From an uncultured Rhodobiaceae bacterium (lineage in GTDB: Archaea > Thermoplasmatota > Poseidoniia > Poseidoniales > Poseidoniaceae), in assembly GCA_937911445.1 (NCBI GenBank), contig CALDQY010000189.1:185-64184 (forward strand): a stretch of 64,000 nt of DNA. The letters run 5' to 3'. Made by a program: the position numbers and the translations under genes. Position 1 is the stretch's first letter. Each line of letters starts with the position of its first letter. The notes below the pieces were generated by a model. That model was not told the origin of the DNA. It saw only the letters and a program-made list of their open reading frames with translations, and ran no database searches. Below, piece by piece: positions 24,229 to 49,500 of the stretch.

Positions 24229-26766
24229 AATATGTCCAAATTGCAACGTAAGAAAATCCACTTGGTTTTTTTCCTTCAATTGGTATTCCTGCTTTCACTG
24301 TCGTCACCTCTTGTACAAGGTACAAACCCATACGGTGACGTTAGTAAAATGGACGCAGCTCTCGAGTCCGCCTTGCAATCGGCACAAGATGTCGATGAAT
24401 CCTTCGAGGTGATCTTCCAACTCCATTCGCCTGTGACAGATGCTGATTTGGCTTACTTCTCTAAGATCGGAGCGACGCACCTTCACGAAGCGAAACTGAT
24501 TGATGGTGGATTAATTGAAGCCCCTACGGATGTTCTTCGAAAACTTTCAAACTGGGAACGAGTCGAATATCTTGAATTAAACCGTGAATTGGATTTCTTC
24601 TATTTGCCGCCTGATTGGGGTGGTAATCCGACGGATCCCTCCCTTATGATGCATGAAACAACACATGTCGTTCGAGCAACAGACGCATGGCACCGAGCCA
24701 TCATCGATGTCAATGGAAATGTACAGTTTGAAACGGACAATGCTTTCACCGAATGGGACGGAGATGGAACCGCTGTTGTCGACCTCGATACTGGTGTTGA
24801 TGCGGGCCATCCAGACTTCGATTATCTTGAACCTTGGACTGGTGAGAAAGTGATCTACTCCGCAAAATGGAATGGCGTTTGGACAGAAACTCGAAACTCC
24901 GACACATCCTCAGGACACGGAACACACGTCGGTGGCACCATTGCAGGAAACGGTGATGCATCTGCTGGACGAAGAGCAGGCGTTGCGAAGGGTGGACAAA
25001 TGGTCGCATTAGGAACGGGCGATGGCGCCTCCATCTTTGCTGCAGAGCAAGGTCTCGAGTGGACGTTTGAACACTCAATTCCATCGCAAAACCCGTATCA
25101 TATTCGTGTTGTATCGAATTCATGGGGGACAGACGGTGATTACGATCCAAACGGCGCTATCGCTACAATCACTGACAGACTCACTTTCGAAAACGGTGTT
25201 GCCGTTATCTTTGCCGCTTCCAATTCAGGTGGCTCAGGTGGTGGAGGCGAATGTGGTGGAGATTTGCGAACAAACGTGTACGCCAACACGCCTTCTGCGA
25301 TCTCCGTTGCTGCTCTGACCCATGACGGAACTCAGGTCACTTCGTTTTCTTCAAGAGGTTGTATGAATCAACAGCATACATGGCCAGATGTCGGCGCTCC
25401 AGGACGTGACATTTGGGCGACAGCCCCTCGTGGAACCGCCATCGACGCAAGCACTCGGACGCAAGGTGACCTGTATTACATGGCCATCTCAGGTACATCC
25501 ATGGCAACCCCTCACGTTGGTGGCATGGCTGGAGTTATTCTCGATATCGCACCATCCTTGGGTGTCGCAGATTATCATCGCGAAGATCACGATGAAGGTG
25601 ATAGCCTCGTCGGGGGTGAGGGTACTGCTGCATATGGGCAATTTGAAGATTGGGATACAGCCAACTATTCACGTGTTCACGAACTTGAATTGATTCTCGA
25701 ATTAACGGCTCGCTACGAAGGAATGGAAAATTCTTGCGAAGACGGGAACAGTGAAGATTCATGCAACGATATTCCGGAGGAATGTTATCGTTCGGCAACT
25801 GGTGAATGCCACGATTGGAGAATTGGGCACGGATTGACGGATGTCGATGCGGCTATGGCATTGGCACGAACACTTCAACTCATGCGCGACCAAGATGGCG
25901 ACGGTTTCGTTGATCATCCCGAATACACAGTTTGGGATGCATGGGCCATTTACGAATCCATGATGGTTGAAGCATCCATCCCTGTTAACACAGACCGAGT
26001 AAGTCATAGCTGGAAGGGCGATTGGAATCATTTCAACAACGGTGCTACCGGTGCTGTGTATTACACCGAAGATTCGCATTACGTTTGGATTCCAAATGGA
26101 ACTACCCAAATGGAGGCTCGGTTCGTACCAACAGAATTTGATTTGGATACCGCCCAAGGAGGTGCCTTGCAACTTGAAATCGATCTTGGAGAAGATGGTA
26201 GCAACGATGCACAAGGCGCGTGTACACGTGTTTCGGACGCTTGGATTTGCGACCTCGATGTTGAATCATCGCACTGGAATTCATGGGCACATTTTGATGT
26301 CACAGGTCAGGCATTCACGTTCTTCGGTATCCTCAACGATCCTGAGTTCTTTGAATCCCGAATTCCCTACACGGTTGACGTTACACTCACGTTGGACTTG
26401 AGCGAACCTGTCGATATTTCCGTCGAGCAACGACCTGATTTCTACTCGGACCTCGACCCTGCCTCTCCCTCGGATGCTTACGATTCTGAGTACGATGGTA
26501 TGCTCACCTTCACACGACCAGTGTACGACCAACAAGCCGTTGCAGCATTGATTCAACCAAAGGAAGTTGCCACAGACGATGTTGAAGGAGGCTTCTTCTC
26601 CGCTCTTGGAGATCTGTTTTCCGAATACTTCGGGGCTGCAAGTTTCTTCTTCTTGTTCGTTCTTCTAAGTGCCCTCGGAATTGGATATCTCGTGCGATCG
26701 AGCCGAATCGATGAACCGAAACTGTTGGTTTCTACATCCGTAGATGCTGAACTCATCGAAGATTAG
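24229..26766 (+). CDS. secreted subtilisin-like serine protease (S8) with large C-terminal extension and C-terminal TM anchor
   Basis: Signal peptide 'IHLVFFLQLVFLLSLSSPLVQG'. Catalytic 'VVDLDTGVD', 'HGTHVGGT' and 'GTSMATPHVGG'. C-terminal 'FFFLFVLLSALGIGYLV'. Start at Met 24229 preferred over 24178. Confidence 0.85.
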   Translation, partial: NMSKLQRKKIHLVFFLQLVFLLSLSSPLVQGTNPYGDVSKMDAALESALQSAQDVDESFEVIFQLHSPVTDADLAYFSKIGATHLHEAKLIDGGLIEAPTDVLRKLSNWERVEYLELNRELDFFYLPPDWGGNPTDPSLMMHETTHVVRATDAWHRAIIDVNGNVQFETDNAFTEWDGDGTAVVDLDTGVDAGHPDFDYLEPWTGEKVIYSAKWNGVWTETRNSDTSSGHGTHVGGTIAGNGDASAGRRAGVAKGGQMVALGTGDGASIFAAEQGLEWTFEHSIPSQNPYHIRVVSNSWGTDGDYDPNGAIATITDRLTFENGVAVIFAASNSGGSGGGGECGGDLRTNVYANTPSAISVAALTHDGTQVTSFSSRGCMNQQHTWPDVGAPGRDIWATAPRGTAIDASTRTQGDLYYMAISGTSMATPHVGGMAGVILDIAPSLGVADYHREDHDEGDSLVGGEGTAAYGQFEDWDTANYSRVHELELILELTARYEGMENSCEDGNSEDSCNDIPEECYRSATGECHDWRIGHGLTDVDAAMALARTLQLMRDQDGDGFVDHPEYTVWDAWAIYESMMVEASIPVNTDRVSHSWKGDWNHFNNGATGAVYYTEDSHYVWIPNGTTQMEARFVPTEFDLDTAQGGALQLEIDLGEDGSNDAQGACTRVSDAWICDLDVESSHWNSWAHFDVTGQAFTFFGILNDPEFFESRIPYTVDVTLTLDLSEPVDISVEQRPDFYSDLDPASPSDAYDSEYDGMLTFTRPVYDQQAVAALIQPKEVATDDVEGGFFSALGDLFSEYFGAASFFFLFVLLSALGIGYLVRSSRIDEPKLLVSTSVDAELIED

Positions 26767-28055
26767 AGAGGGTTCTGTGGTGCTTCTTTTGGAGCACTAC
26801 TTGGCATCGATTCGAGATCCTCAAAGGTTAGTTGTCCGGTGTGAATTTCTTCAATTTCTTGAAGCCGCTCAGCCATTGGTTTTCGTACAATAAATTCGAT
26901 ACGACCTTTGCTTCGTGTCAAATCGTAGGAAAGTGGGTCAAGTGCTTCGATGACCTGTTGTTCGAACGATCGTTGTACTCTTCGTCCTCTCCAAATCGAA
27001 TACCCCCATTGATATGCAATCCCAACGATAGCCGCACCGTAGAGGATGGCAAGGAAGGTTGCAGCAAACAAGGCGGCATTTCCGCCGCGGGCTTCCTCAA
27101 GCAAATCTCGCCCAAGGAGAAATATCAGACCAACACCAACTAAAGGTTTGAGCAGCGACTCTACCCACTGGTCAATCGGTATGAGTCGACCTTTGGATGG
27201 GTCAACAAAGACTAGGTCTGTTTCAAACGCTGTTGATAGTACCCCGACCAGTGCCAACAAAGCGATATACAACAAGGAGGAGAGAATGATTTCAGTTCCA
27301 AAGTTATCCAACTTGAAGATCCAATGAACAATCAAATAGGCGAACAATCCCAAAAATACACCACGTGGTACTCTGTGAAAGTGCTCGATGTGCTGTGAAA
27401 ATTCAGTGTAATTTCGCTCTTGTGCAGGATTACCACGGTGGGCTTGAGGGATGTGGATGATTTGCCAATGCATCGTTCGCTCGACGAGGCTCATGATTCG
27501 AATCAAGATTCGTCGCCTGATAAGAACAAATTCAACCAAAAGAATCACGGGCAGACCAACCAGCATGACTGGAAGTGCAACGATGAATGCGAGTGGAAAA
27601 ATAATCAAAGCTGGAAGGATAAGGAAATGGGAAATCGATAATGGATTCAATATGTCAGCCTCAATCAACCGTTGTCGTGATGGAGTAATTCTCAAGCTTC
27701 GAGCAACATCGTTCAGTGAATGTCGATAACTTTCCAATTGTCTTCCAGAATCTATGATTTGTCGAACGTTGGTTCGGTACTCGGATTCTTCATGACTTCC
27801 ACCGATCCAATACTGCCACATAAAGCGGAGCGGAATCGCTGTCAAAACAGGTACAGATAGGATGCCTAGGGCCCAGACAAGTGATTGAAGATCAACCTCT
27901 GCTGCCATAGGCTCACTGGACCGTCCCAGTTTTCTCCTTCCTATCAATCCATTGTGAAAAACTCGAAGCGAACCCAATGTTCTAACACCTCTTCGATAAG
28001 CATCATCCATGCGAAGAGTAGCCGTAACCGACGGTATGGCGCAAGAGGCCGTCAA
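26763..28055 (-). CDS. hypothetical polytopic membrane protein
   Basis: 430-aa ORF with about 8 hydrophobic helices. True start probably internal (e.g. MAAEVDLQSL), since the ORF N-terminus overlaps the serA-like gene start. Confidence 0.5.
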   Translation of the reverse strand: MTASCAIPSVTATLRMDDAYRRGVRTLGSLRVFHNGLIGRRKLGRSSEPMAAEVDLQSLVWALGILSVPVLTAIPLRFMWQYWIGGSHEESEYRTNVRQIIDSGRQLESYRHSLNDVARSLRITPSRQRLIEADILNPLSISHFLILPALIIFPLAFIVALPVMLVGLPVILLVEFVLIRRRILIRIMSLVERTMHWQIIHIPQAHRGNPAQERNYTEFSQHIEHFHRVPRGVFLGLFAYLIVHWIFKLDNFGTEIILSSLLYIALLALVGVLSTAFETDLVFVDPSKGRLIPIDQWVESLLKPLVGVGLIFLLGRDLLEEARGGNAALFAATFLAILYGAAIVGIAYQWGYSIWRGRRVQRSFEQQVIEALDPLSYDLTRSKGRIEFIVRKPMAERLQEIEEIHTGQLTFEDLESMPSSAPKEAPQNPL

Positions 28056-28995: not shown

Positions 28996-29057
28996 CCATT
29001 TTCACTTTTCAGAAGGGGTTCGCACAACGCTTCCCTAGCGTTCGTCGTTCCAACACC

Positions 29058-29351
29058 ATGGGACGAACTGTACCAACCTGGCGAGGACGCGTTGAACAAG
29101 AGATCGAAATTCTCGTACCGTACCGGCGCGCATTATCCCATGAGGATCGCTGTCGTTTTGATGCGATGCTCCATGATGTTCGAATGCGTCGAGCAGCAGG
29201 TGGCATGCTTCCTGCGCACGAGGCGTGGAGGCCGATGCTTTTGTCGATGATTCTTGGTGCTCATGAACGAATTCAAGCGCTTGAACAACGTATTGCATCT
29301 CTTCAACAACATATTTTGTCTTTGGATGGAGACGGTCATGACCAGCACTAG
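29058..29351 (+). CDS. hypothetical small Arg-rich protein, translationally coupled to the PolB gene
   Basis: 97-aa ORF. Its stop (TAG 29349-51) lies 11-23 nt inside the PolB start (ATG 29326/29338). Could be a regulator or accessory subunit. Confidence 0.35.
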   Translation: MGRTVPTWRGRVEQEIEILVPYRRALSHEDRCRFDAMLHDVRMRRAAGGMLPAHEAWRPMLLSMILGAHERIQALEQRIASLQQHILSLDGDGHDQH

Positions 29352-31731
29352 TGGCTGGATTTTGGACGCCCATCTTTGCTCAGCACAACTCGAAATGCTG
29401 GTATGGATTGTGACTGAGGAGGGCTCTGTTGTTTCATTTCGTGAGCCTTGGCATCCTACACTGCATGTCGCCGGAAGTTCATCAGATCTCGATCATCTCG
29501 TCGAATGGTTGTCGCAGCCAGAACTCTGGATACGATACGGTCTGCAACGTTATGCCTTTGAGAGAAAACGACCCGAATTGGGTTCCTTCGATACGGAACG
29601 TATGCTCGCACTTACGCTCGAATCGTCCGCTACATTACGCGCACTCGCCGAACACATCGATGCGCGTGGTGAACATGTTCGATACAACCTCTATTCCGTA
29701 GATGTTCGAGCTGAACAGCAGTACCTCACTTCGAAGCGATTGACCATTGGTTCACCTGTGTGCCTCGAAAACAACCACCTTTCGCTCTTGGAAAGAGATG
29801 TTCAACGACGTGACTGGCGATGTTGTCGACTTGAGGTTGTTCTCGAGGAGATTGGTCAAGGAGAAACGCTGTGTCGCCAGCCAACACGTGTTTTCGTTAC
29901 ACCATGCGATACGTCTGGCACCGTCACAGGGCCACAAGTTGCTTTTTTTCTGCAGCAATCCTCATCTCTCCAACAATTGGAACAGTGGTTTCAAGCGTAT
30001 GATCCTGATCTTGTGCTGTCGCTGCGTGGCGATACCGAAGGGTTTCCACATCTGTTGCGCTACGTTGAAGCCAAACATACAGCGCTCTGTCTTGGACGAA
30101 ACCAAACCCCTCTGAGACAGATTGGTCAAACGAGGATTCTTTCGTCCTATGGGCAGGTGTTGCGAAGCAATCCTCAGTTCCCACTCGAAGGTCGTATTCA
30201 TATCGATCTTTCGTCAAGTTTCATGTTTCGGGAGGGGGGACTCGATGGACTGTACGAACTTGCGCGTGTTTCTGCAACGCGAATCAGTGATGCCTCAAGG
30301 AAATCTCCGGGTTCGGTGATCAGCGCGATACAATACCGAGTAGCGATGGAAGATGGTGTGCTTGTTCCGTGGAAAAAGACGCGTCCCGAGGACACGAAGT
30401 CTGCATGGGATTTGTTGCAATCCGACCGAGGAGGGCTCTACTTGGACAGCCGGCCTGGTGTCTATGCTAACGTCATCGAACTCGATTTTGCAAGTCTCTT
30501 TCCAAGCATCATCGCAACACGCAACATCTCTCCAGAGACATTGAATTGCAGTTGTTGTCAACCGACCAAGAACACCACGCCACTACCTCTCCACCCGGAT
30601 GAAGCCAAAAAGCGGTTTCAATTGCAACAGCAGCAATGGAAATCAGCAAGTCTTGCATTTCCTCAACAGTGCTCAAATGCGTTTCAGGTCCCTGAATTAA
30701 TGACGCATACATGTGGTCGCAGGCATGGTTTTCTCGGCCGAGTCGTTGCACCTCTCATCGAACGACGTCGTCACCTTAAGCAGCAAATTGTCGTTAAGGG
30801 CGATGCCGCCGATCGTCAGCAGAACGCTCTCAAATGGCTTCTTGTCACGTGTTTTGGTTACACGGGATATCGAAACGCTCGTTTTGGTCGTATTGAAGCA
30901 CATGAAGCCATATGTGCTTGGGCTCGTGAACTTCTCTTGCAGACCATCGAATGTGCCCAAGAACGTGGTTGGGAAGTGTTGCATGCCATTGTCGACTCCA
31001 TCTGGATCCGTGATCGAGAGGGTCGTTCTCTCGAAGAACAGCATCACTCTGCGATGGATCTTTCGAATCATGTGCATAAAATGACGGGCATTCCTCTCGA
31101 ATACGAAGCAACGTACCGCTGCATTGCCTTTCTTCCAAGTCGGATGCACAGCGGTGGTTCACTGACGAAGTATTGGGCATATGGCGAGAAGGGAATGAAG
31201 ATTCGAGGGCTTGAGTTACGGCAACATTCGACGTGTCCTTGGGTTGCTCAACTGCAAACACGCGCCTTAGAAATGCTGGCGAATGCCGATGATTTGGCAG
31301 ATGGCATTCCAAGCTATCGTGTACAATGCCAAATTCAACGGCTTCTCCTCGACGAAGTGCAGCGTCTTGAACACTACCAGATACGTGCAAAGGATTTGCT
31401 CGTTGCCCAACGAATCTCTCGAAGGCCCTCTGCGAATTCCTCACAAACCGTGGCCATGTTGGCCTATCAGCGCTCAGAGTCGCTAGGTTATCCTTTGGAA
31501 TTGGCCTCAAAGGTACGTTTTGTTGTGTGCACAAAAGATGCCATTAATCCGTTGCAACGTGTTGTTCTTGCACGGGAATGTGAACACCTGGATGGTCCAT
31601 TTCGGCGCATCGATGTTGATTACTACCGTCGACTTGCTGTGCGGGCAATATGGTCGGTTCTCGCTCCATTTGGTTGGTCGGAAGAGCAACTGCTTGAGCC
31701 GCCAGTCGCTCGGCTGGAACAATGGATGTAA
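29338..31731 (+). CDS. polB: family-B DNA polymerase, bacterial Pol II-like, with substituted exonuclease and motif B/C residues
   Basis: 'QWFQAYDPDL' aligns with E. coli Pol II 'AWFANYDPDV'. Motif A 'DSRPGVYANVIELDFASLFPSII' aligns with 'DSRPGLYDSVLVLDYKSLYPSII'. Motif C appears as 'HAIVDSIW' in place of 'YGDTDS'. Motif B appears as 'KWLLVTCFGYTG' in place of 'KIIMNAFYG'. Exo I/II acidic residues are not recoverable. About 797 aa from ATG 29338. Confidence 0.8.
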   Translation: MTSTSGWILDAHLCSAQLEMLVWIVTEEGSVVSFREPWHPTLHVAGSSSDLDHLVEWLSQPELWIRYGLQRYAFERKRPELGSFDTERMLALTLESSATLRALAEHIDARGEHVRYNLYSVDVRAEQQYLTSKRLTIGSPVCLENNHLSLLERDVQRRDWRCCRLEVVLEEIGQGETLCRQPTRVFVTPCDTSGTVTGPQVAFFLQQSSSLQQLEQWFQAYDPDLVLSLRGDTEGFPHLLRYVEAKHTALCLGRNQTPLRQIGQTRILSSYGQVLRSNPQFPLEGRIHIDLSSSFMFREGGLDGLYELARVSATRISDASRKSPGSVISAIQYRVAMEDGVLVPWKKTRPEDTKSAWDLLQSDRGGLYLDSRPGVYANVIELDFASLFPSIIATRNISPETLNCSCCQPTKNTTPLPLHPDEAKKRFQLQQQQWKSASLAFPQQCSNAFQVPELMTHTCGRRHGFLGRVVAPLIERRRHLKQQIVVKGDAADRQQNALKWLLVTCFGYTGYRNARFGRIEAHEAICAWARELLLQTIECAQERGWEVLHAIVDSIWIRDREGRSLEEQHHSAMDLSNHVHKMTGIPLEYEATYRCIAFLPSRMHSGGSLTKYWAYGEKGMKIRGLELRQHSTCPWVAQLQTRALEMLANADDLADGIPSYRVQCQIQRLLLDEVQRLEHYQIRAKDLLVAQRISRRPSANSSQTVAMLAYQRSESLGYPLELASKVRFVVCTKDAINPLQRVVLARECEHLDGPFRRIDVDYYRRLAVRAIWSVLAPFGWSEEQLLEPPVARLEQWM

Positions 31732-32401
31732 AGTGGCTCAATTGTTGTTGGTCTATTGGATGGCTCGATTGTTTCATGGTCACTTGGTAAACGCCTGTGG
31801 AGCCTGTGAGCCGAAGTGTTGTTTTCTCTCGGTCCCCCCATGTTCCTTGTAATCGATGGCGAACATAAGGCCGCATCGTATGCTTGAGTTGTTGATGCAA
31901 GGGAGAGGTCGTCTTTCCATCGAGAAGAACAATTGGACAGTTTCGACCTACTTCTTCAAGCGAAGCCATGCAATGGCGTAGAATCGAACGTGCTTCAAAT
32001 CGTTTGATTTGTTCATCAAGGAACATTGCGAGCATACCATCGACAACGATCATCGATGCCTGTGTTAATGCAACCTCATGCCGAATTCTTTGGATAAGTG
32101 CATGCAGTTGATGTAAGGTGAATCCTCGCCCAATGTACAATCGACGTAACCCGTCTTCGATAGGACAATCCAGTGAACGCATGGATGGAAAAAATCCGCT
32201 TGGATCAAATCGATGACCTCCATCAATCCAATGCACAGCATGCCCTCTCGAAAGAAGAATGCTCGTCCAATGTTGAGCGAGTACTCGCCCGTCTTTTCCA
32301 AAGTATCCTGGTCCCTCGAGCAGGGTGATGCCTGTCGAAGGGATACGCAGTTCACTACGTTGTCGTTCTACTGGATGCATTGTCTCACCAAGTATTGCCA
32401 A
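31544..32401 (-). CDS. RecA-fold protein with degenerate P-loop (ImuA/SulA-like)
   Basis: 'ITLLEGPGYFGKDGRVLAQHW...HAVHWIDGGHRFDP' matches the RecA-family P-loop/strand pattern, but with GKD instead of GK[ST]. Walker-B-like 'ASMIVVDGMLAMF'. The ORF's last ~60 codons overlap the PolB 3' end convergently. Confidence 0.55.
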   Translation of the reverse strand: MAILGETMHPVERQRSELRIPSTGITLLEGPGYFGKDGRVLAQHWTSILLSRGHAVHWIDGGHRFDPSGFFPSMRSLDCPIEDGLRRLYIGRGFTLHQLHALIQRIRHEVALTQASMIVVDGMLAMFLDEQIKRFEARSILRHCMASLEEVGRNCPIVLLDGKTTSPLHQQLKHTMRPYVRHRLQGTWGDREKTTLRLTGSTGVYQVTMKQSSHPIDQQQLSHFTSIVPAERLAAQAVALPTNQMEREPTILPAQQVDGSNQHRCAEMDHPGVHIPVQEQHVATD

Positions 32402-32453
32402 TCACTGAAACCAAACCTCAGTGTTTTTGTAGGGAGTAATGGAAAAGTGAAGG

Positions 32454-33602
32454 ATGAATTTCAAACACTGTCGACAAGTGTGTCGATGTGTGCGTGAAGA
32501 GCGAATCATCATCCATTGCGACCTCGATGCATTTTTCGCATCGGTCGAAATCCTTCATCATGGCTTTCCTGAGGATGAACCGTTAATCATTGGCTCGGAT
32601 CCGATGCAAGGACGTGGCCGAGGCATTGTATCGACGTGCAACTATGCTGCAAGGGAATACGGTGTTCGGTCTGCGATGCCAATTTCTGAAGCATGGCGCA
32701 GATGTCCCGGACACCCTTTTGGCCCTGCCCGCTTCATTAGGGGTACTCGATCATTGTATTCGATGGCTTCACGACGCGTTATGAAGATTCTGAGGCAAGA
32801 TTCAGACAAGTTTGAACAGGCGAGCATCGACGAAGCCTATCTCGATGTTACTGAGATTGTCAAGCACGATTGGGATGAAGCGATGGCCCTTGCACGAAGA
32901 CTGCAACGATCGATTCATGCGAAGGTAGGCTTAACAGCATCTTTCGGAATTGGGCCAACACGAATCATAGCGAAGATGTCCTCCGAAGTGAACAAACCAA
33001 ACGGTATTCATCGAGTTCTACCCGATGAGATTTCAGAGTTCTTCGAGGCTCGATCTGTGAGAGAAGTACCGGGCATTGGTCCGAAAACTGCCAATGTTCT
33101 CTCGGAGTGGGGTGTGACAACCATGGACGAGGCCGTTGAATTGGGTGAACTCGCTCTAGCCAGAATGACATCTCGTCGATTTGCTTCTTGGTTGTTGAGG
33201 GTGGTTGAGGGTTTAACTTCCAACGATGTTAGTCCTCTAAGATCCCGTCGCTCGATTGGCAAAGAGCGAACATTTTCCAGCGATCAAAGTGATCATGAGC
33301 ATGTGCTCGAACTTCTTGAACAATTGACACAGACTGTGCTAGAAAAGGCTCGAACTGAAGGAATTGCAGGCCGTCTTGCAGAAGTCAAAATCCGGTACAC
33401 TGGTTTCGAAACACATACGCACGGACGATCAATACCTGTTGCCATGGACGATACAGATGTGTTTCTGAGACAAGTCCGCAGACTGTTTGCAGAAAACGTC
33501 CACCAGGACGAAAAAATCCGCCTCATCGGTTTTCGACTAGGGCAACTCGAAGAATTGGACTCCCGTCAAACGACGCTGGATTTTGTCGATGAATCAGAGT
33601 AA
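32454..33602 (+). CDS. dinB: Y-family DNA polymerase IV (DinB/Dpo4)
   Basis: 'IIHCDLDAFFASVE' and 'SIDEAYLDVT' catalytic motifs are intact. 'GIGPKTA' helix-hairpin-helix. Real start may be GTG 32490 just upstream of 'RIIIHCD'. Confidence 0.85.
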   Translation: MNFKHCRQVCRCVREERIIIHCDLDAFFASVEILHHGFPEDEPLIIGSDPMQGRGRGIVSTCNYAAREYGVRSAMPISEAWRRCPGHPFGPARFIRGTRSLYSMASRRVMKILRQDSDKFEQASIDEAYLDVTEIVKHDWDEAMALARRLQRSIHAKVGLTASFGIGPTRIIAKMSSEVNKPNGIHRVLPDEISEFFEARSVREVPGIGPKTANVLSEWGVTTMDEAVELGELALARMTSRRFASWLLRVVEGLTSNDVSPLRSRRSIGKERTFSSDQSDHEHVLELLEQLTQTVLEKARTEGIAGRLAEVKIRYTGFETHTHGRSIPVAMDDTDVFLRQVRRLFAENVHQDEKIRLIGFRLGQLEELDSRQTTLDFVDESE

Positions 33603-36056
33603 TTTGTGCATCCGAGTGAGGGTATCATGGAATCCAGTGAGGTTGTCTGGAATCACGATGCCTTCAATCTCAGCATTCAGCGATAAGCCGTTTTCTTTCT
33701 TCGTTTTCCAAACCTCACTGTTGAAGGATTCAATGCCTGAAGTTTTGGAATTCAAATCCTCATCGACCGATGGTAGATTGGGGAAGGAATCAACATCAAC
33801 AGCGCTCGTTCCGTAGAGCGTCATCGATATGTGATGGCAAAAGAAGGGACAAACTGGGCTGAATGCAGCGAGGAAATCACGTAGAATGCTATGAATGGTC
33901 CAAGCAGCATGCTGATCTCCATCGTACAACCGAGATTTTGCCATTTCAAGCCAATGTGAAGGCAAAATCCCAGTTCCGAATGTCTTGAGTGCCTGAGTGG
34001 CAGTGTAAATATCGAGGTTTTCCCAAGATGTTCGAACGCTTGCCATCATGGTTGCGAACTCAGATTGAATCCAACGATCTTCAATAGGATACGGTGCAGA
34101 TGGCTCATCCTCTGGACAATCAAACTGGCTGGCAAATCGGGCGACGTTGAATATCTTCGTTAGTACACCGAAGTACTTCGATTCAATTTCTTCTGGATTG
34201 ATGTGAAAATCATCTCCAACTTGAGCTTCGCATGCCTTCCACAGACGAAAACACTCACTGCCAATTTTGTTCGCTTTGAGACTGACCGAACCATCAGGTC
34301 CTCGCACCTTCCATGAACCTGTTCGTCCTCCTGCACCACATTCGAGGACACTATCTGCATCAATTCCATTTCCGAGCGATTTGGACATCTTTCTGCCCCA
34401 CGGGTCCATGCCTAGACCATCGATCCATACATGCTTGAAACCAGGTTTCTCTAGCAACAGGGCAGATTTCAGAAGGGTGTAATACAACCACGTACGAACG
34501 ATTTCTTTTCCTTGAGGGCGTAAAGCCGTTGGGAACGCCTTTTCGAAAACCTCTGGTTGGTTGAGATACCCGCTGACAAACAGATTGGAGTTGGAGGAAT
34601 CCATCCACGTATCGAAGACTTTCTCTTCACCACGGATTTGTCCCATTTGTTCTTCAAGTTCGGAATACAATCCGATGTCTTCTCTTGTGTCTCGCTGCAG
34701 AACTCTCGACCCTTCAGGAGGTGCGTCCTTCCACGGCTGTACATAGGTTCCAGCTGGTGGAACGATGATGTGTTCCTCGTCTTCGGAGTACCAAATTGGA
34801 ATTTCAGTGTGGTACCATCGTCGTCGTGATATTGGCCAATCGATGCTGATGTTGTCCATCCAATCCAACAAGAATTGTCGGTTGCGCTGCGGGTGGAATT
34901 CGATCTGTTCAATCAAGTCGAGCATCTTGTCTTGCATGTGTGTTTGGCGAACGTACCATTCCTTCAGTAGGATGATTTCGACAGGATTCTTTCCTCGTTC
35001 TGAAACGGGAACTTCTTGCTGTCGCTCTTCAATGGCATCGATATTGCCCTCCATTTCCAACATCTCGATGGCTTTTGCACGGGCATCAAGGACGGATAAC
35101 CCTTCAAGTGGACCCGAGATTGAGGTCATGCATCCGTTCAAATCGATCGCTTGGAATGGTGCTAGGCCTAGTTCTCTGAAGACTGCGACGTCGTTTTGAT
35201 CACCGAACGAACAAACCATGAGAATTCCACTTCCAAACTCGGACTTGACCGATGGGTGTGTCTGTATTTCAACGGATTGTGCACGTCCGGATACTGGCAT
35301 TGGAAGAATGGCTTTCTTCCCAACAAGGTGTTGGTAACGCTGGTCATCTGGATGAACAACAACGACGCCACAAGCGCAAATCAATTCCGGCCGAGTTGTC
35401 GAGATAACAAGGTCCTCACCGTCTTCGGTCGTCCAACGAACATCAACCAATTTGGTCATTCGACCAATTCGCTCCACTTCAGCATCAGCAATGGTCGTTC
35501 CTTCGACTGGGTCGTAGATGTTGGGTCTCAAATCTTCGACGATGTCTCCTTTCTTGAACAGTTCAATGAAGATTGATTGGGTTACTGATCTGTAATCAGG
35601 AGCGTCGGTGAGATACTCTGCGGCAAAATCGCAAGATAGGCCAACACGAGCAGCAGTTTTTCGCATGGCTTGTGTGAACGTCTCGATCGTTTCACGACAT
35701 AAATTGAGAAACTCTTCTCGGCCGTATGTCTTCATTTTCCGCTTTGTGTTCTTTTCGACGGTGAATTCAATATTGATTCCGTTCCGATCCACACCCCAAG
35801 GGAAGTAGACTTCCTTACCAAGCAATCGCTGAGAACGTGCCAGAACATCGATCATCGAATATTGTGCAACAGCGCCAATGTGCCACGTTCCCGATGGGTA
35901 TGGAGGTGGTGTGTCAATCACAAAAATTGGTTTCCCACTCTGTGGATTGAAACCATATCGTTGTTGATAGGCATTTTCATCGGCGTAATGTTGTTCTTGT
36001 ATGCTCTTTTCGAGGTCGATTGACCATCGCTTTTCTGGAAGTCGAGGCGTTCCCAT
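33594..36056 (-). CDS. valS: valyl-tRNA synthetase
   Basis: 'PPPYPSGTWHIGAV' HIGH region. 'TTRPELICACGVVVVHPDDQRY' (ValRS 'TTRPET...VHPED'). 'KMSKSLGNGID'. Start set at Met 36056 (MGTPRLPEKRW). The upstream 64 codons are probably not translated. Confidence 0.8.
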   Translation of the reverse strand: MGTPRLPEKRWSIDLEKSIQEQHYADENAYQQRYGFNPQSGKPIFVIDTPPPYPSGTWHIGAVAQYSMIDVLARSQRLLGKEVYFPWGVDRNGINIEFTVEKNTKRKMKTYGREEFLNLCRETIETFTQAMRKTAARVGLSCDFAAEYLTDAPDYRSVTQSIFIELFKKGDIVEDLRPNIYDPVEGTTIADAEVERIGRMTKLVDVRWTTEDGEDLVISTTRPELICACGVVVVHPDDQRYQHLVGKKAILPMPVSGRAQSVEIQTHPSVKSEFGSGILMVCSFGDQNDVAVFRELGLAPFQAIDLNGCMTSISGPLEGLSVLDARAKAIEMLEMEGNIDAIEERQQEVPVSERGKNPVEIILLKEWYVRQTHMQDKMLDLIEQIEFHPQRNRQFLLDWMDNISIDWPISRRRWYHTEIPIWYSEDEEHIIVPPAGTYVQPWKDAPPEGSRVLQRDTREDIGLYSELEEQMGQIRGEEKVFDTWMDSSNSNLFVSGYLNQPEVFEKAFPTALRPQGKEIVRTWLYYTLLKSALLLEKPGFKHVWIDGLGMDPWGRKMSKSLGNGIDADSVLECGAGGRTGSWKVRGPDGSVSLKANKIGSECFRLWKACEAQVGDDFHINPEEIESKYFGVLTKIFNVARFASQFDCPEDEPSAPYPIEDRWIQSEFATMMASVRTSWENLDIYTATQALKTFGTGILPSHWLEMAKSRLYDGDQHAAWTIHSILRDFLAAFSPVCPFFCHHISMTLYGTSAVDVDSFPNLPSVDEDLNSKTSGIESFNSEVWKTKKENGLSLNAEIEGIVIPDNLTGFHDTLTRMHKLL

Positions 36057-36189
36057 GCTTAACACCGGCCCTGCCCCCTGTGAACGGGGGGGTCCGATTG
36101 ACCCTGTGTGCGTTTCTTTTTCAACGGTTCCCTCACAACGAGACAGCAATACTTTCAATGAAAGACCCGAGGGGCTACTGGGTAGCCGT

Positions 36190-39100
36190 ATGCCGGAAGA
36201 CGCCGAAGACACAACATCCTCCCATGGTGAGGAGGACGTTGGACGCATTCAGGCGATTGCTGACTACAGTCGAGAGCGTGTACGAGTAGCCTCGGTTGAC
36301 ATCTCTGCCCGAGTGCGTGACTTTGATGCAAAAAAGGCAGTTGATGCAGTTCTCGAAGCTCCGAAGAGGTTGAAACGGGAATGGCAAAAAACCGGAGCAA
36401 CAGGTGTTATCACACGTTTTCCGATTGCAACAGTGGCCTTGTTTTTGATGATCACATTGTATTTTGTCACAACGTCAGGATTCCTTGACGACACGCAGTT
36501 TGATGATGATCCGAACGAACCTGCACTCAATGTCAATGGTGACATGGAAGTATACCTCCCAGATGGGAGTGAAGTCAAGGAACTAATCGAAATGGTTGAA
36601 GCGGATTGGACGACCAACGTTATGGTCATTTACATAGAATCGGATAAAAACAACATAACTGACCAAAGGATTTTGCAAGAAATCAGTTATGTTGAAAAAA
36701 GCATCAATCCTTATGTCTCTGACAATGAAAGCGATGATGTCATTTACATTCTTTCAATTTCGACGGTACTGAAGGAAATCAATTCAAGTTTGCCGCGTGT
36801 ACGTGACGCTTTCATCACCGAGTTGGGTCGCCAATGCCCATCTTTCCAAGAGGTCTGTGAGAACTTCGCCGCTAGTGTCAACACGGCATTGTCGGCAGGT
36901 GATGACCAATTTGCTGGTGGTTACGAAATTCCTTCCCAGACAACCATCGATTTGATCATCGGTGAAATGTACGAAAACGATGGGTCTCCTACGCCAGGTC
37001 TGGATAAACTCGCACGGAATACCAATGCATGCAGCGGCCAACCGAACGATGAAGGTACTGATGACAACGGTTGTTTTGATGGCGAGGACTTGAAACTCGA
37101 TCGAGCCATTATGGCAGTTGCAGTTGTCGACTCTATCGAGGCCAAAGATATCATCGAGGCAACACAACAACGCCTTGACAACATCTCGACCGAACAGCGT
37201 CCATGTGAATTCGATCAAAACGGTAACCCAGCGAGTGCTGACCGTTGTACCTGGGACGATCTTGGCCTGAAAATGACTCTTACAGGGCCCGTTCCCATTA
37301 CGAATTCTGTGACCGAGTTTTCGTTCCGTTTGTTCTGGGAAATTTTCCCGCTAGCAGTTGTCCTTGTCGCTATTGGTCTCTTTGTCTTCCACTCAGATCT
37401 TCTGCAAGCAGGTATCTCTGGTATACGCCCAATTCAAGGAATCAAAGTCGTCATCATTGCCGGTCTTCCAACACTGTGTGCAGTCTTTTGGACATTGGGA
37501 ATTATCGGGGCATCGAATTATGAAGTGACGATGACGGTCATTATCGTGGGTCCAATTTTGCTTGCATTAGGTGTCTCGTATGGTTTGCACATCACCAACA
37601 GATACGCTGAAGAAGAAGGTAGCAGAACCGAAAAGATGCAAGCTTCGATGAAATCAACTGGTCGTGCTGTTTTCTTATCTGCTGTCACAACCGTCATTGG
37701 ATTTATTTCACTGATTTTCACGCCTATGGCGCCAATCAAAACCGTTGGTATTGCGCTTTCAGGTGGAATTGTCATCGTCTACATCCTGACGATGTTTATG
37801 GTTCCAAATCTTACCCTGATTCTTGATTTACGTAAACCGAAACATCCTCCACTGAAAGTGTTTGATGCTGCTGTTGACGTACCGGTCAAACGCAACCGTA
37901 GTCTTATTGCGTTCTTCCTAATCCTGGTATTCGTTTCAGCAACGCTTGGCCAGTCCAATGTTGAAGAAAACATCGACCTGCTGGGTATGGCTCCTGAAGG
38001 TGAGCAACCGGTCATCAAGATGAAACAATACAGTCGTGAGTTCAATGCAGGCCAAATCGGTATGGTTCTTGTCCACGCAAACGTATCTGGCGATGTCACC
38101 GACAACGACCCAACCAATGATGATCCCGCTCAAAATCTGAAAATCATTGACGGCCTAGAGAGGAATCTCAATACTGTTGAAAATGCATCTGCTGTTTCTG
38201 TCGTGTTCCTCATGAAAGCAACTGGACTTGCCCCTACTCTCTCTGGTCAACCACTCCTTGCACAAATTCAAGAGATTCCTGGCTATGATATTCTACCAGA
38301 GGATGTTCGCAACACCTTCGAAGTCTTGCTTGATCAAGAGGTAACACAAGGTGCAACATTTTGGGATTTGCTGACCACTCCTGAAGAATTTGGCTTGCCG
38401 GGTTCAACGCAGAGTCAAATTTTCTTGCTCGATGTATTCTACTCTTCTCTGACAAAAGAAATGCGTGAAATTTTCATCAATTCGGATTATGATCGAACGC
38501 TGATTTACATCGACATGCCATTTATTCCTGTTGCTGATACCGCAGTGGCTGTTGATCAAATCAACGAATACTCTGAGGGATTCCAAGGTACGCATCAAGA
38601 ACGTGCTGAAAAACTGACAGGAGTCGCTGCAACCGCTATCGAAGTCAACAAATTGATTGTTGATTCGCAATGGACCTCACTCGGATTCGCCATCGTGCTT
38701 ACGCTGATTGTACTCGCCGTCGTGTTCAGAGACATTCGGTATTCACTCTTGACGACATCACCTGTGATTGCTACCGTTGCACTCCAATGGCTCGTTATGT
38801 GGCAAATGGATGTGCCATTATCCCTCGTAACCGTCATGATCGGATCGATTCTTGTTGGCGTCGGGGTCGACTTTTCGATTCACATCGCCAATCGTATACG
38901 TGAACTTGGCGGTGGGATTGAGGCGATTCGTTCTGCAGCGGTTGGAACAGGAATGTCGCTGTTTGAGGCTGCAGTCGTCACATCGCTTGGTATGTTTACT
39001 GCCTATCAAATTCCAATTCCTGAAATCAAACCTTTCGTGACGGTTATCCTCATTTTGCTCTGGGTTGCAGCAGCAAGTGCTTTGCTCCTCCTACCCGCTA

Positions 39101-39252
39101 TTTTCGTTACACTCGAGAAACTTGGAATCGGAGTTGTCGGTGGACCTTCTGCAATGTCAAGACGATTGGGACTTGGTAAAATGAAAGCAGATGACCCAGA
39201 CGTTTTGGAAGCCGTTCTCATCCACGAACCGAGCAACAAAGAAGCGTGGTGA
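36190..39252 (+). CDS. RND-superfamily / MMPL-type exporter (two 6-TM bundles with large extracytoplasmic loops)
   Basis: Duplicated TM blocks, e.g. 'FLSAVTTVIGFISLIF' and 'GSILVGVGVDFSIHIANR'. Large acidic loops. Start at ATG 36190 avoids overlap with valS. Confidence 0.75.
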   Translation: MPEDAEDTTSSHGEEDVGRIQAIADYSRERVRVASVDISARVRDFDAKKAVDAVLEAPKRLKREWQKTGATGVITRFPIATVALFLMITLYFVTTSGFLDDTQFDDDPNEPALNVNGDMEVYLPDGSEVKELIEMVEADWTTNVMVIYIESDKNNITDQRILQEISYVEKSINPYVSDNESDDVIYILSISTVLKEINSSLPRVRDAFITELGRQCPSFQEVCENFAASVNTALSAGDDQFAGGYEIPSQTTIDLIIGEMYENDGSPTPGLDKLARNTNACSGQPNDEGTDDNGCFDGEDLKLDRAIMAVAVVDSIEAKDIIEATQQRLDNISTEQRPCEFDQNGNPASADRCTWDDLGLKMTLTGPVPITNSVTEFSFRLFWEIFPLAVVLVAIGLFVFHSDLLQAGISGIRPIQGIKVVIIAGLPTLCAVFWTLGIIGASNYEVTMTVIIVGPILLALGVSYGLHITNRYAEEEGSRTEKMQASMKSTGRAVFLSAVTTVIGFISLIFTPMAPIKTVGIALSGGIVIVYILTMFMVPNLTLILDLRKPKHPPLKVFDAAVDVPVKRNRSLIAFFLILVFVSATLGQSNVEENIDLLGMAPEGEQPVIKMKQYSREFNAGQIGMVLVHANVSGDVTDNDPTNDDPAQNLKIIDGLERNLNTVENASAVSVVFLMKATGLAPTLSGQPLLAQIQEIPGYDILPEDVRNTFEVLLDQEVTQGATFWDLLTTPEEFGLPGSTQSQIFLLDVFYSSLTKEMREIFINSDYDRTLIYIDMPFIPVADTAVAVDQINEYSEGFQGTHQERAEKLTGVAATAIEVNKLIVDSQWTSLGFAIVLTLIVLAVVFRDIRYSLLTTSPVIATVALQWLVMWQMDVPLSLVTVMIGSILVGVGVDFSIHIANRIRELGGGIEAIRSAAVGTGMSLFEAAVVTSLGMFTAYQIPIPEIKPFVTVILILLWVAAASALLLLPAIFVTLEKLGIGVVGGPSAMSRRLGLGKMKADDPDVLEAVLIHEPSNKEAW

Positions 39253-46552: not shown

Positions 46553-49500
46553 ATGTCACTTAATCACAATCAAATGGCGTACGCAGCAATCATCTCAACC
46601 CTCATTTTCGGATCCCTCTTTGTGGGTGTCAGTGGGTTCTATCAAACATCATCGGGCGTCGGTGATTTTGATAGCGCTGCTGAGGAAGAGATTACACCTC
46701 AAATCGAAATTTCCTCCGGTGATGCAATCGACACTGATGGAGATGGTTTGCCCGATGTTTTGGAAGAGTCGCAGTACGGTACACTGAAAGACGATCCTGA
46801 TACGGATAATGACGGTATGAGTGATGGTTGGGAAGTTGCACACGGTCTAAACCCACTTGACAGTGGTGAAGCTGAAGAAGCTGAGGAAGAATCTGGTTCC
46901 ACAAACCAAGCCGATGGTGCAGAAGTAAGCAATGAAAGCGATTCGTGGCCTGACCCAACTCAAGGAAAGTACGGTGACCCTGACAACGATGGTCTTACCA
47001 ACGAGCAGGAAGCTGAATTAGGAACCGATCCTCAGCGAGCAGACACAGATAACGATGGTTTGAACGACCGTTGGGAATCGATATACACAATGAACGTTTC
47101 ATCACCAGACGGAACTGTAACACTGTTTAATCCTCTCTCTGGAAACTGGGATTGTTCACTCCTCAATGGCCCACTTGAGCAAACACTTGCAGACATCCTC
47201 GAAGGATTTGAGGGTGCACCAAGCTGGGAAGAATTGGAAAGTCCGCTCGGCCGACACTCCTGTGACCAAGTCCTTGATTTCGATGACGACGGTCTGCTCA
47301 ACTTCCAGGAGGAAGCATACGGTACGAACCCTGCTGCAAAGGATTCAGACAACGATATGCTCCCTGATATTCTGGAAGTGAACAATGCCAACATGATTCT
47401 CGATTTCCAGCTTGGTTCAAATTGTGGTGAACCTGTCATCACGCCTCCTTCACAACGTCTTCCAACCGCTGCTCCATTTGCTGATGAAGTGAGTGCATCG
47501 TGGTTCTTGTCGGACATGGACGGAGATGGCTATCTCAACGGACCAAGTGATTGGGACACCGATGGTGACGGAATGCCAGATGGATTCGAGTTTTGTTTCT
47601 CCTTCAAGGACAACCACCCATTCGGCGTCTCGAACCCACAGAAAGCCGTTTCTGAACTCCTCAGCCCATCCAATGCATCGGATGGATACAACGACTGGGA
47701 TGAAGACGGACTCAACAATCTTGAGGAGTATCAAGTCGCCCTCAAATTCGGTCTGGTAAACGGCCTGCCATCCTTCACATCACCTTGGACCGAAGACACA
47801 GACCAAGACGGCATGCCTGATGGTTGGGAAGCAAGTCAATACAACCGGACAACGCTTGAATATCCACTTAACCCACGCAACGCGAGCAATGCGAACGATG
47901 ACATCGATTTCGATGGATGGGATTCCGATGGTGATGGTGACGTCGTCTTTGATGATCTCGAACTCACGACAACTGTCGTCGATGTCTACGTTACGAAAGG
48001 TGATTACGTCACAGCAAACTCAACCGTTGCTCGTGGGCAATATACGCTCGGCGGTGGTAACAAGCAAACCGTCTATCTCGTTGCTCCTGTTGATGGCTAC
48101 GTTTACCACATCAACGTTGCACCGGGTGATCAAGTAGAATCCCGATTGTTCGTTTGGATGAACGTTGTTGAAGAATCGGAACGATTCACCAACTTGATGG
48201 AATATGAGGCTCGATTTGATGAAAACGGCAATGCTGTTGGACGCTCAACAGACCCTACACACGGAGATACGGATCTTGATGGTCTCCTAGACGGAATCGA
48301 AGTCGGTGGCTGGGAGATTCTGGTTGTCAACCGAGGTGTGCAATTGACATGGGTTGTTTCAGACCCAGGTCTTGCTGATACTGATTCGGATGGTCTTTCG
48401 GACTTTGTTGAGTTCTCCTCCGCTTGCGATGGTCAAGGATCCAACGCTTCCAACGTTGATACAGATGGTGACGGTGAAAGTGACCAGCAAGAAGCTGTAC
48501 TCGGCTACATTTTCAACGGTGAACAATACTTCACATCGGCTTGTATGTTTGACACCGACAACGATGGACTTGAAGATGGCGAGGAGGTTATCGCCGGTGC
48601 AGATAACTTCGTCACGCATGCCAACAATTCAGATACAGATGACGATGGTCTAATCGATGGCAACGAAATTCTGTTTGTTCCACGACCGTTCCAACACGAA
48701 ACCAATCCACTGATCAACGACACGGATGCTGACGGCATGCTTGATGGATGGGAAATGCAAGTCAAGTCTACTGAAGCCAACACCAATTCTCACTCTCTAT
48801 GGGTTGCTATCTCAAATTGGGATCGACCCGGATGCACTGAGAGTACATCCAACAGCTGTCTAATGGAACCGGGGGGCTATGTCTGGATCAATTGGCTCGG
48901 CGGCTTTGAGTTGCAAAAGAAGTACGAGGTTCACGAAATGAATCTTTCAGGATTTGACATGCCCGGTAACCCTCTCTGCGATGGATGTAAAGGACGTTGG
49001 GCTCTTGACCCCTCTCTCAATTCGTTGAAGGATGATACATACGATATTGACAACGATACGTTGCCGAATGGTGCTGAATCCCCTACAAACTGGAATACCA
49101 ACCCAGTCGACGATGATACCGATGGTGACAAACTTCCGGATGGTTGGGAAGTGCAATATTCGTACGAGGCAATCAACAACAATCTCGTTGATAATGCGAC
49201 GATCAATGCATATGGAGCTCGTGGTGTCATGGACCCTTCGATGGCAGACAGTGACCTTGACGGAATCAATGATGGAGAGGAAGATCCAGATCAGGATGGT
49301 CTCAACCGGACAGGACTGATCAAGAAATATTGCCCTGGTTACAATGATTCAACCAATGCTGAATGCAACATTGACCCTGATACACCTGACGGAATGAAGT
49401 TCTACAACAACCTCGAGAACTACACCAACTATGAGGAATTGCAAAACGGTACGAATCCTGTTAGCAATGACACAGATGGTGACGCTTGGGAAGACGGCCC

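Follow-up and report, generated by a model that had tools for sequence, protein, structure and literature searches.

A PolB2-type DNA polymerase gene of a Marine Group II archaeon, flanked by PPB2, iRadA and DinB genes, as the probable catalytic subunit of a translesion mutasome

RESULTS AND DISCUSSION

The polB2 locus and its genomic setting

We analyzed a 64,000-nucleotide stretch of contig CALDQY010000189.1 (GenBank assembly GCA_937911445.1; hereafter, the window), in which an open reading frame (ORF) at 29338-31731 encodes a family-B DNA polymerase with substituted catalytic motifs. An earlier note, made from the sequence alone, had placed the ORF at exactly these coordinates, which we confirmed; its ATG at 29338 is supported by homologs of the same length. 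We identify the gene as polB2 and estimate at roughly 0.85 the probability that its product serves as catalytic subunit in a PolB2 (Dpo2-type) translesion mutasome of an archaeon from Marine Group II (Candidatus Poseidoniaceae). The PolB2 mutasome consists of PolB2, PPB2 and iRadA (Timinskas et al. 2025, PMC11791011), and the following genes lie together in the window:

29058-29351, plus strand: PPB2 (arCOG07300, DUF8156), small partner of PolB2; 97 amino acids (aa), N-terminus MGRTVPTWR (R3, R9)
29338-31731, plus strand: PolB2 (Dpo2-type family-B DNA polymerase); intact ORF, 797 aa
31544-32380, minus strand: iRadA (inactivated RadA/Rad51 paralog); 278 aa from the ATG at 32380, convergent with PolB2
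32454-33602, plus strand: DinB/Dpo4-type Y-family DNA polymerase IV; 382 aa, divergent from iRadA

The GC content across the window is even (0.44-0.51) and shows no break. Core chromosomal genes occupy the flanks (alanyl-tRNA synthetase [AlaRS], RtcB, a class I tRNA synthetase, tRNA-Ser and tRNA-Thr), and the closest PolB2 relatives, at 95-96% identity, come from metagenome-assembled genomes (MAGs) of Candidatus Poseidoniaceae. Hence, polB2 lies on the chromosome of an uncultured marine archaeon of the Thermoplasmatota.

Gene order was compared across 80 GTDB Poseidoniales loci from species-level genomes, where several of the missing neighbors are accounted for by contig ends. PPB2 lay on the plus strand in 77 of the 80 loci, iRadA was found in 75 (on the minus strand every time), and DinB in 51. 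The recurring wider order is NUDIX, Lactamase_B, Peptidase_S8, a membrane protein, 2-Hacid_dh, PPB2, PolB2, iRadA, DinB, a tRNA synthetase and MMPL, and the locus is fixed between the 2-hydroxyacid dehydrogenase and the class I tRNA synthetase in ~80 species-level genomes. The ratio of nonsynonymous to synonymous substitution rates (dN/dS) was 0.065-0.078 for PolB2 (against relatives at dS 0.8-1.4), 0.08-0.16 for PPB2, and 0.10-0.15 for the iRadA core. Judged by these low values (about 0.07-0.16), PolB2, PPB2 and, as regards its core, iRadA are working genes under purifying selection.

These results bear on two other readings of the ORF, as a pseudogene in decay or as a polymerase belonging to a mobile element (casposon, provirus or plasmid). 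Such an origin would fit the substituted catalytic motifs described below, and archaeal mobile elements often carry PolB genes. It is scarcely conceivable, however, for an intact ORF of 797 codons with a dN/dS of about 0.07 that keeps its synteny in ~80 species-level genomes, between core genes and with no break in GC content.

Assignment to the PolB2 family

The best NCBIfam models for the protein were NF004418 (363 bits) and NF004416 (351 bits), versus at most 83 bits for models of canonical archaeal PolB or Pol II. NF004418 is the haloarchaeal PolB2 model, since a published Natrialba PolB2 reaches 812 bits on it with its N-terminal half. A single Pfam domain was found in the ORF (DNA_pol_B, PF00136, E = 1.6e-26). 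The strings spanning motifs B and C are nearly letter-identical between the published PolB2 table (ALKWILVACFGY...HGIVDSIWV) and the window (ALKWLLVTCFGY...HAIVDSIWI); the table string, also given as ALKWILVACFGYQGF...HGIVDSIWV, is nearly the window's own. The protein likewise carries the PolB2-type motif B pattern KW[ILVM]LV..FG together with the retained motif A Asp, and its Marine Group II ortholog EHR76801 (46% identity) sits in the published PolB2 operon dataset. PolB2 was first recognized as a conserved, "apparently inactivated" clade of PolB that keeps the distal Asp of motif C and has no counterpart of Exo I (Rogozin et al. 2008), and was later linked to arCOG07300 and an inactivated RadA (Makarova et al. 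2014).

The protein was aligned in three ways: by phmmer against Protein Data Bank (PDB) chains, with a 26-member family profile against the same chains, and with that profile against E. coli Pol II (NC_000913). The earlier note had attributed to the protein an E. coli Pol II-like backbone, on the strength of two local anchors. Both anchors do align in the family profile (QWFQAYDPDL with AWFANYDPDV of Pol II, and DSRPGVYANVIELDFASLFPSII with DSRPGLYDSVLVLDYKSLYPSII), but the overall affinity lies elsewhere: Thermococcales PolB matched with E = 2e-31 (single sequence) and 2e-48 (profile), versus 3e-11 and 1e-19 for Pol II. Structure gives the same picture. In Foldseek searches with an AlphaFold2 (AF2) model of PolB2 (mean predicted local distance difference test [pLDDT] score 76), Thermococcales PolBs matched over the full length with E of about 1e-35, and Pol II was outside the best 50 matches. 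The low-confidence stretches of the model are the loop at residues 347-367 (pLDDT < 50) and an insertion at the base of the fingers (389-463).

Hence, it is very improbable that the protein is a single-subunit repair polymerase of Pol II-like, SOS type that originated in bacteria and lost its proofreading secondarily. The aligned anchors and the fact that Pol II is also an extender-type translesion synthesis enzyme speak for it. Nonetheless, the Pol II models NF004420-NF004422 scored only 44-78 bits, under their cut-offs of 570-1435; by sequence as well as by structure the protein is much nearer to archaeal PolBs, and all near relatives found in homolog searches were archaeal. Moreover, PPB2 and iRadA partners are present here, while Pol II works alone and has its DEDDy exonuclease site intact. 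Between them, scores, selection and synteny exclude the pseudogene and mobile-element readings as well as a Pol II-type enzyme.

Polymerase motifs

The features of the polymerase domain are as follows:

30358-30435, plus strand: loop VLVPWKKTRPEDTKSAWDLLQSDRGG, ending in the family-specific D(K/R) motif, D363-R364
30478-30513, plus strand: motif A (ELDFASLFPSII); catalytic D383 retained, steric-gate Tyr replaced by F388
30820-30870, plus strand: motif B variant QNALKWLLVTCFGYTGY; K499 retained, Asn replaced by V503 and Tyr by F506
30976-31005, plus strand: motif C variant VLHAIVDSIW; first Asp replaced by I551, distal D553 retained

Motif B reads KWLLVTCFGYTGY here (core KWLLVTCFG) and KILANSYYGYYGY in Thermococcales PolB, with K499 and G507 retained and Ser replaced by T504 in addition to the changes at 503 and 506. 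Motif C reads HAIVDS instead of YSDTDG: Tyr is replaced by H549, the first Asp by I551 and Thr by V552, and D553 is kept. The earlier note's account of motifs A to C (two Asp residues kept; the motif B Asn and Tyr and the first motif C Asp lost) is therefore borne out.

Conservation was assessed in 120 Marine Group II homologs and in the best 149 of 533 cluster representatives (50% identity, exhaustive search, E <= 1e-30). Across both sets, D383, K499, V503, F506, G507, H549 and D553 were invariant or nearly so, and position 551 was Ile or Leu. The tripeptide IVD in motif C was found in 120/120 Marine Group II homologs and 94/149 representatives, and no representative (0/149) had DxD there. 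The steric-gate aromatic F388 was invariant along with D383, D553 and K499 over >260 sequences. The two metal-ligand aspartates D383 and D553 plus K499 of motif B make up a polymerase-competent ligand set. Upstream of motif A by 20 residues, D363-R364 was invariant in the Marine Group II homologs (120/120), and among the representatives Asp was kept in 142/149 and Arg or Lys in 138/149. This D(K/R) motif was defined in PMC11791011, whose model has the loop binding iRadA and the PPB2 arm.

The alternative that PolB2 is a non-catalytic scaffold, an inactivated polymerase whose part in a replication or repair complex is structural or regulatory, was the original hypothesis for the family (Rogozin et al. 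2008) and had also been raised for this ORF in the earlier note. In its favor, Tyr and the first Asp are missing from YxDTD and Asn from motif B, and the exonuclease site is gone; moreover, the enzyme assays to date concern PolB2 from Sulfolobales and none from Marine Group II. A scaffold, however, needs none of the residues D383, D553, K499 and F388, which serve metal and triphosphate binding and the steric gate and are invariant over >260 sequences. In addition, two Sulfolobales PolB2 enzymes with the matching xxD motif C are robust polymerases (PMC8764526). With its catalytic ligands invariant and Dpo2 active, we consider the 2008 hypothesis superseded and a scaffold improbable for the window protein.

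A cluster of cysteine and histidine residues was seen at the base of the fingers, within the region of low AF2 confidence (residues 389-463). It consists of CxCC (C404, C406 and C407; 30547-30558) and HxC (H457 and C459; 30706-30726) on the plus strand (30547-30726 overall), and H463 is also encoded in the second segment. The four cysteines (CxCC...C) are conserved in 120/120 Marine Group II PolB2 sequences and in 128-138 of the 149 representatives. This PolB2-wide cluster may represent an undescribed metal site; the 2025 mutasome paper (PMC11791011) makes no mention of it.

Exonuclease region

The exonuclease region retains the following remnants:

29827-29847, plus strand: Exo I remnant RLEVVLE (residues 164-170); columns vary across the family
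30013-30054, plus strand: Exo II remnant (VLSLRGDTEGFPHL); the position of the catalytic Asp is G235
30190-30270, plus strand: GRIHIDL...YELARV segment, ~60 residues shorter than in Pol II and Thermococcales PolB, with Exo III (YxxxD) deleted

At Exo II, the window protein reads RGDTEGFP opposite WNVVQFDL of Pol II, so that Asn is replaced by R230, Phe by E234 and the catalytic Asp (Pol II D229) by G235, as the earlier note had proposed. The note had also proposed loss of the Exo I Asp. In the hidden Markov model (HMM) register, Pol II D156 and E158 stand opposite E166 and V168, and a shift by one residue would pair them with V167 and L169 or with V168 and E170. At least one Exo I carboxylate is thus lost; which one depends on the register, and the DxE pair is incomplete in any of them.

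The deletion of Exo III, a feature absent from the earlier note, completes this pattern: the starts of GRIHID and of the YELARV helix lie 21 residues apart, versus 81 for the corresponding anchors in Pol II (271 to 352), and this mostly deleted stretch contains Y331 and D335 of Exo III in Pol II. The exonuclease positions are variable in both conservation sets. No element of the DEDDy proofreading site is left in the window PolB2. In phmmer alignments, profile HMM alignments and family column counts alike, the exonuclease and motif B/C residues are absent rather than shifted. Judged by these comparisons, the substitutions in motifs B and C and in the exonuclease region are hallmarks of the PolB2 family, neither idiosyncratic nor signs of decay.

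Partner genes PPB2, iRadA and DinB

PPB2 is described as small and helical, with an N-terminal MGRT arm that includes Arg3 and Arg9 and is inserted close to the active site (PMC11791011). The stop codon of the window PPB2 gene overlaps the PolB2 start by 14 nt. The Pfam scan gave no match for this protein, and it was identified from the published motif and by pairwise comparison with a PPB2 sequence from the published dataset (51% identity, E = 2e-32); PF26485 was found in 56 of 58 PPB2 homologs.

iRadA is described as a Rad51 core without the N-terminal domain (PMC11791011). The Pfam scan of the window protein gave only faint Rad51/KaiC hints (E = 0.12-0.16), but pairwise comparison showed 37% identity (E = 1e-38) to an iRadA sequence from the published dataset. 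An AF2 model built with 23 homologs shows an alpha/beta core predicted with confidence (residues 10-204), followed by a disordered tail (205-278), and its best 50 Foldseek matches among PDB chains were all Rad51/RadA/Dmc1 ATPase cores (E about 1e-9, ~200 aligned columns). The N-terminal helix-hairpin-helix (HhH) domain is absent, leaving a core-only Rad51-like protein. Further features of the gene are:

32288-32323, minus strand: degenerate Walker A (LLEGPGYFGKDG); Lys retained, Thr/Ser replaced by Asp
31547-31732, minus strand: iRadA C-terminal extension, residues 217-278; antisense to the PolB2 C-terminus, predicted disordered

Walker A reads GPGYFGKD, with Asp or Glu in place of Thr/Ser, and loss of ATPase activity is likely.

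The 3' ends of polB2 (plus strand) and iRadA (minus strand) overlap antisense by 188 nt (31544-31731) in the window's clade. Most other Poseidoniales loci have an overlap of 4-116 nt or zero, and one (L072) has 167 nt. The shared bases evolve neutrally when read in the iRadA frame (dN/dS 1.2-3.2) and under constraint in the PolB2 frame (0.05-0.17). Because the constraint lies in the PolB2 frame, the 62 iRadA codons past the motif resembling a clamp-binding site (see below) are an unconstrained read-through extension. In one further locus (L001, 8372-9050, minus strand, on the 901-kb ENA contig of homolog P0011), iRadA is broken into two ORFs (128 and 102 aa), probably through a frameshift error in this pilon-polished assembly rather than as a real pseudogene.

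The DinB ORF matched NF002677 with 276 bits (cut-off 256) as well as Pfam IMS and IMS_C, and the encoded protein is a conserved neighbor that is probably a lesion inserter.

Observations that weigh on the mutasome assignment

Some observations count against the assignment to the PolB2 mutasome. First, the NCBIfam scores of the polymerase are under the curated cut-offs (363 vs 692 bits for NF004418 and 351 vs 516 bits for NF004416); because this holds for both PolB2-type models, the scores place the protein on a divergent PolB2 branch. Second, iRadA retains the Walker A Lys and, in its Walker B-like IVVDG, the Asp, which makes the loss of its ATPase activity likely rather than certain. Third, PolB2 biochemistry comes from Sulfolobales enzymes only, which are much shorter in the N-terminal and exonuclease region, with motif C at residues 401-403 there and at 551-553 here.

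Finally, iRadA is encoded on the opposite strand, so the three genes do not form a single operon, unlike at most PolB2 loci. A co-oriented three-gene operon is found neither here nor in any of the 75 Poseidoniales loci having iRadA, in all of which iRadA is convergent. This convergent layout is nonetheless published as operon group 3b, which comprises 95 operons (Timinskas, Timinskas and Venclovas 2025, PMC11791011), and being a published variant it does not exclude mutasome membership. Neighbors counted among the 95 operons include 2-Hacid_dh_C (45), IMS (46), Lactamase_B (32) and tRNA-synt_1 (42) (PMC11791011), and the synteny of the window is that of group 3b.

Clamp-binding-like motifs

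Motifs resembling PCNA-interacting peptides (PIP) are common to the C-termini of PolB2, iRadA and DinB of the window:

31705-31728, plus strand: PolB2 C-terminal PIP-like motif VARLEQWM; aligns to the PCNA-binding QVGLSAWL of KOD PolB
31724-31750, minus strand: iRadA tail PIP-like motif QQQLSHFTS; consensus QxxLxxFTS
33570-33599, plus strand: DinB terminal PIP-like motif QTTLDFV

In PolB2, L793 and an aromatic residue at 796 were found in 120/120 Marine Group II homologs, and other Marine Group II clades have QPSLLDFV at this position. Shorter iRadA homologs terminate just past their PIP-like motif. According to PMC11791011, PolB2 and iRadA seldom both carry a clamp motif, and Marine Group II may be an exception to this rule.

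Proposed mechanism

The mechanism put forward here draws on homology to Sulfolobus Dpo2 and on published AlphaFold models. Dpo2 of S. islandicus is a robust polymerase that has no 3'-5' exonuclease and copies undamaged DNA with high fidelity; it inserts poorly opposite lesions but is very good at extending mismatched or lesion-paired termini (PMC8764526). Dpo2 is also the damage-inducible polymerase on which damage-induced mutagenesis depends (PMC11791011; PMC7390963, PMC8721586), and a switch between Dpo4 and Dpo2 completes abasic-site bypass (PMC7390963, PMC8721586).

By homology, the window PolB2 would polymerize DNA without proofreading, mainly extending primer ends that are mismatched or paired with a lesion once an inserter has put a base across from the damage, and the adjacent Y-family DinB would be the likely inserter. 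Taken together, the Sulfolobus work on inserter and extender and the synteny of the locus suggest that Marine Group II encodes an inserter beside an extender complex. The working form would be a PolB2 : iRadA : PPB2(3) heteropentamer, in which the loop before D363-R364 would dock iRadA in the manner of a Rad51 oligomerization motif and the MGRT arm of one PPB2 would insert near the active site. PCNA could be recruited through the PIP-like motif of the iRadA tail (QQQLSHF), through the PolB2 C-terminus (VARLEQWM), or through both.

The earlier note's interpretation of a polymerase without proofreading agrees with the kept metal carboxylates, the absent exonuclease site and the Dpo2 family (PMC8764526). 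Its translesion or mutagenic reading is likewise consistent with the mismatch and lesion extension by Dpo2 (PMC8764526) and with its requirement for damage-induced mutagenesis (PMC11791011). The altered dNTP selection that it had suggested finds no support, given the high fidelity of Dpo2 on undamaged DNA (PMC8764526). Thus, a translesion, exonuclease-dead polymerase stands, whereas the Pol II affinity and altered dNTP selection do not, and the PolB2 family and the partner genes PPB2, iRadA and DinB had gone unrecognized.

Comparison with known systems

The closest published counterpart is the Marine Group II mutasome formed by EHR76801 (PolB2), EHR76800 (iRadA) and EHR76802 (PPB2), a member of operon group 3b, which shares with the window the order Poseidoniales, the gene order PPB2-PolB2-iRadA, the motifs, and the neighbors (2-Hacid_dh, IMS/DinB, Lactamase_B and tRNA-synt_1). 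The complex of EHR76801, EHR76800 and three copies of EHR76802 was modeled with a ranking score of 0.866 (PMC11791011). EHR76801, near-identical to homolog P0071, comes from genome CM001443, which is locus L077 of our comparison. The two systems differ in that the PolB2 proteins are only about 46% identical and belong to different Poseidoniaceae clades, and in that the window's clade has a 60-residue iRadA read-through tail and the 188-nt overlap with polB2, whereas the L077 ORFs do not overlap.

Dpo2 of Sulfolobus islandicus and S. solfataricus, the only biochemically characterized PolB2, shares with the window protein the xxD motif C (IID there, IVD here), the D(K/R) motif, the missing exonuclease site and the PPB2 and iRadA partners. 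The exonuclease region of Sulfolobales Dpo2 is shorter, as noted above, and also more decayed. Furthermore, the three genes in Sulfolobales are co-oriented (group 3a) and their expression depends on Orc1-2, whereas the window genes belong to group 3b. Haloarchaeal PolB2 (NF004418) has an identical IVD motif C, a near-identical motif B and 40% identity over the palm-proximal 147 residues; its operon order (iRadA-PPB2-PolB2) and its neighbors (orc1/cdc6 and SRAP) are unlike those of the window.

Among solved structures, the closest are those of Thermococcales PolB (PolB3 group; KOD, Pfu, P. abyssi and 9N), in which GRIHxDL, motif A and the position of the C-terminal PIP motif align with the window protein. 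These enzymes differ in having an intact DEDDy exonuclease and canonical KxxxNSxYG and YxDTD motifs, and each is a single-subunit replicative enzyme. E. coli Pol II resembles PolB2 as a B-family, damage-inducible extender with the two aligned anchors, but has an active exonuclease (D156, E158, D229, Y331 and D335), canonical motifs and a single subunit. Pol zeta (Rev3-Rev7) combines a dead exonuclease with extender activity, though its accessory proteins are unrelated to those of PolB2. Pol V (UmuD'2C-RecA) has a small-subunit oligomer and a RecA/Rad51-family protein bound via an oligomerization-like motif, while its catalytic subunit is of family Y. The likenesses to Pol zeta and Pol V are analogies, not memberships.

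Each main element has been published before: the substitution pattern (2008), the biochemistry that gives it meaning (2020-2022) and the operon type of Marine Group II (2025). For annotation, there is a gain in that public records labeled "DNA polymerase domain-containing protein" or "hypothetical protein" can be named as PolB2, PPB2 and iRadA. The uncultured archaea of Marine Group II are abundant in the ocean, and the conserved island of a DinB inserter and a PolB2 mutasome extender, with a shared upstream element, offers a testable handle on their DNA-damage tolerance. The 188-nt antisense overlap of polB2 and iRadA and the CxCC...C cluster may be new, as may the upstream element.

A conserved element upstream of PPB2 and iRadA

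An identical 8-mer precedes two of the genes in the window, oriented with the gene in each case:

29001-29008, plus strand: conserved upstream element TTCACTTT; starts 57 nt before the PPB2 ATG, candidate promoter or regulatory site
32444-32451, minus strand: second TTCACTTT copy; starts 71 nt upstream of the iRadA ATG and abuts the DinB ATG

Over the whole 64 kb, the exact 8-mer is not over-represented (3 copies observed vs 4.3 expected), and two of the three copies are the PPB2 and iRadA sites. Its significance therefore derives from position and cross-genome conservation, not from window-wide frequency. Across the 80 Poseidoniales loci, 60 sites fall in the 110-nt interval upstream of PPB2, and 103 of 151 occurrences in 715 kb of loci lie inside two small gene-oriented intervals upstream of PPB2 and iRadA, although these counts come from related genomes and are not independent events. 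Frequent forms are TTCACTTTCA or a tandem TTTCAC, with GGGGTY or GGGTCT ~10 nt later (also in loci L007-L086). A degenerate motif, TTYASTTTYA, was tried and rejected; it missed both sites and gave one unrelated match only.

The Orc1-2 damage-response element of Sulfolobus is ANTTTC (PMC6061795), and TTCACTTT contains ACTTTC, which fits it, a resemblance that carries little information. It is a tentative and rather doubtful suggestion that TTCACTTT(C)A is the operator of a DNA-damage (e.g., ultraviolet) regulon in uncultured Marine Group II, possibly pointing to an ancient archaeal damage-response code. If so, TTCACTTT would place the extender mutasome and the Y-family inserter under common control through two distinct promoters.

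Other observations in and around the locus

Between Peptidase_S8 and 2-Hacid_dh, the minus strand at 26763-28055 encodes a 430-aa predicted membrane protein with no Pfam match, and a gene of 381-402 aa holds this position in every Marine Group II locus examined. On the other side of polB2, the longest ORF of the class I (Val/Ile/Leu-type) tRNA synthetase (33594-36248, minus strand, 884 aa) overlaps the 5' end of an MMPL-family ORF (36001-39252, plus strand) by ~250 nt. Homologs of the synthetase are 820-864 aa long, so its true start is probably further downstream. Elsewhere in the window, a 1,878-aa ORF with an FG-GAP repeat (2657-8293, minus strand) and a 1,053-aa ORF with bacterial TSP3 repeats (46553-49714, plus strand) each probably encode a surface protein.

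Two of the Poseidoniales loci (L027, CAXQWT010000075.1, and L057, CAXQWT010000069.1) carry a PolB2 of 84-85% identity along with PPB2 or iRadA and DinB. Both contigs belong to a MAG labeled Salipiger bermudensis, a bacterium, and are probably mis-binned archaeal contigs.

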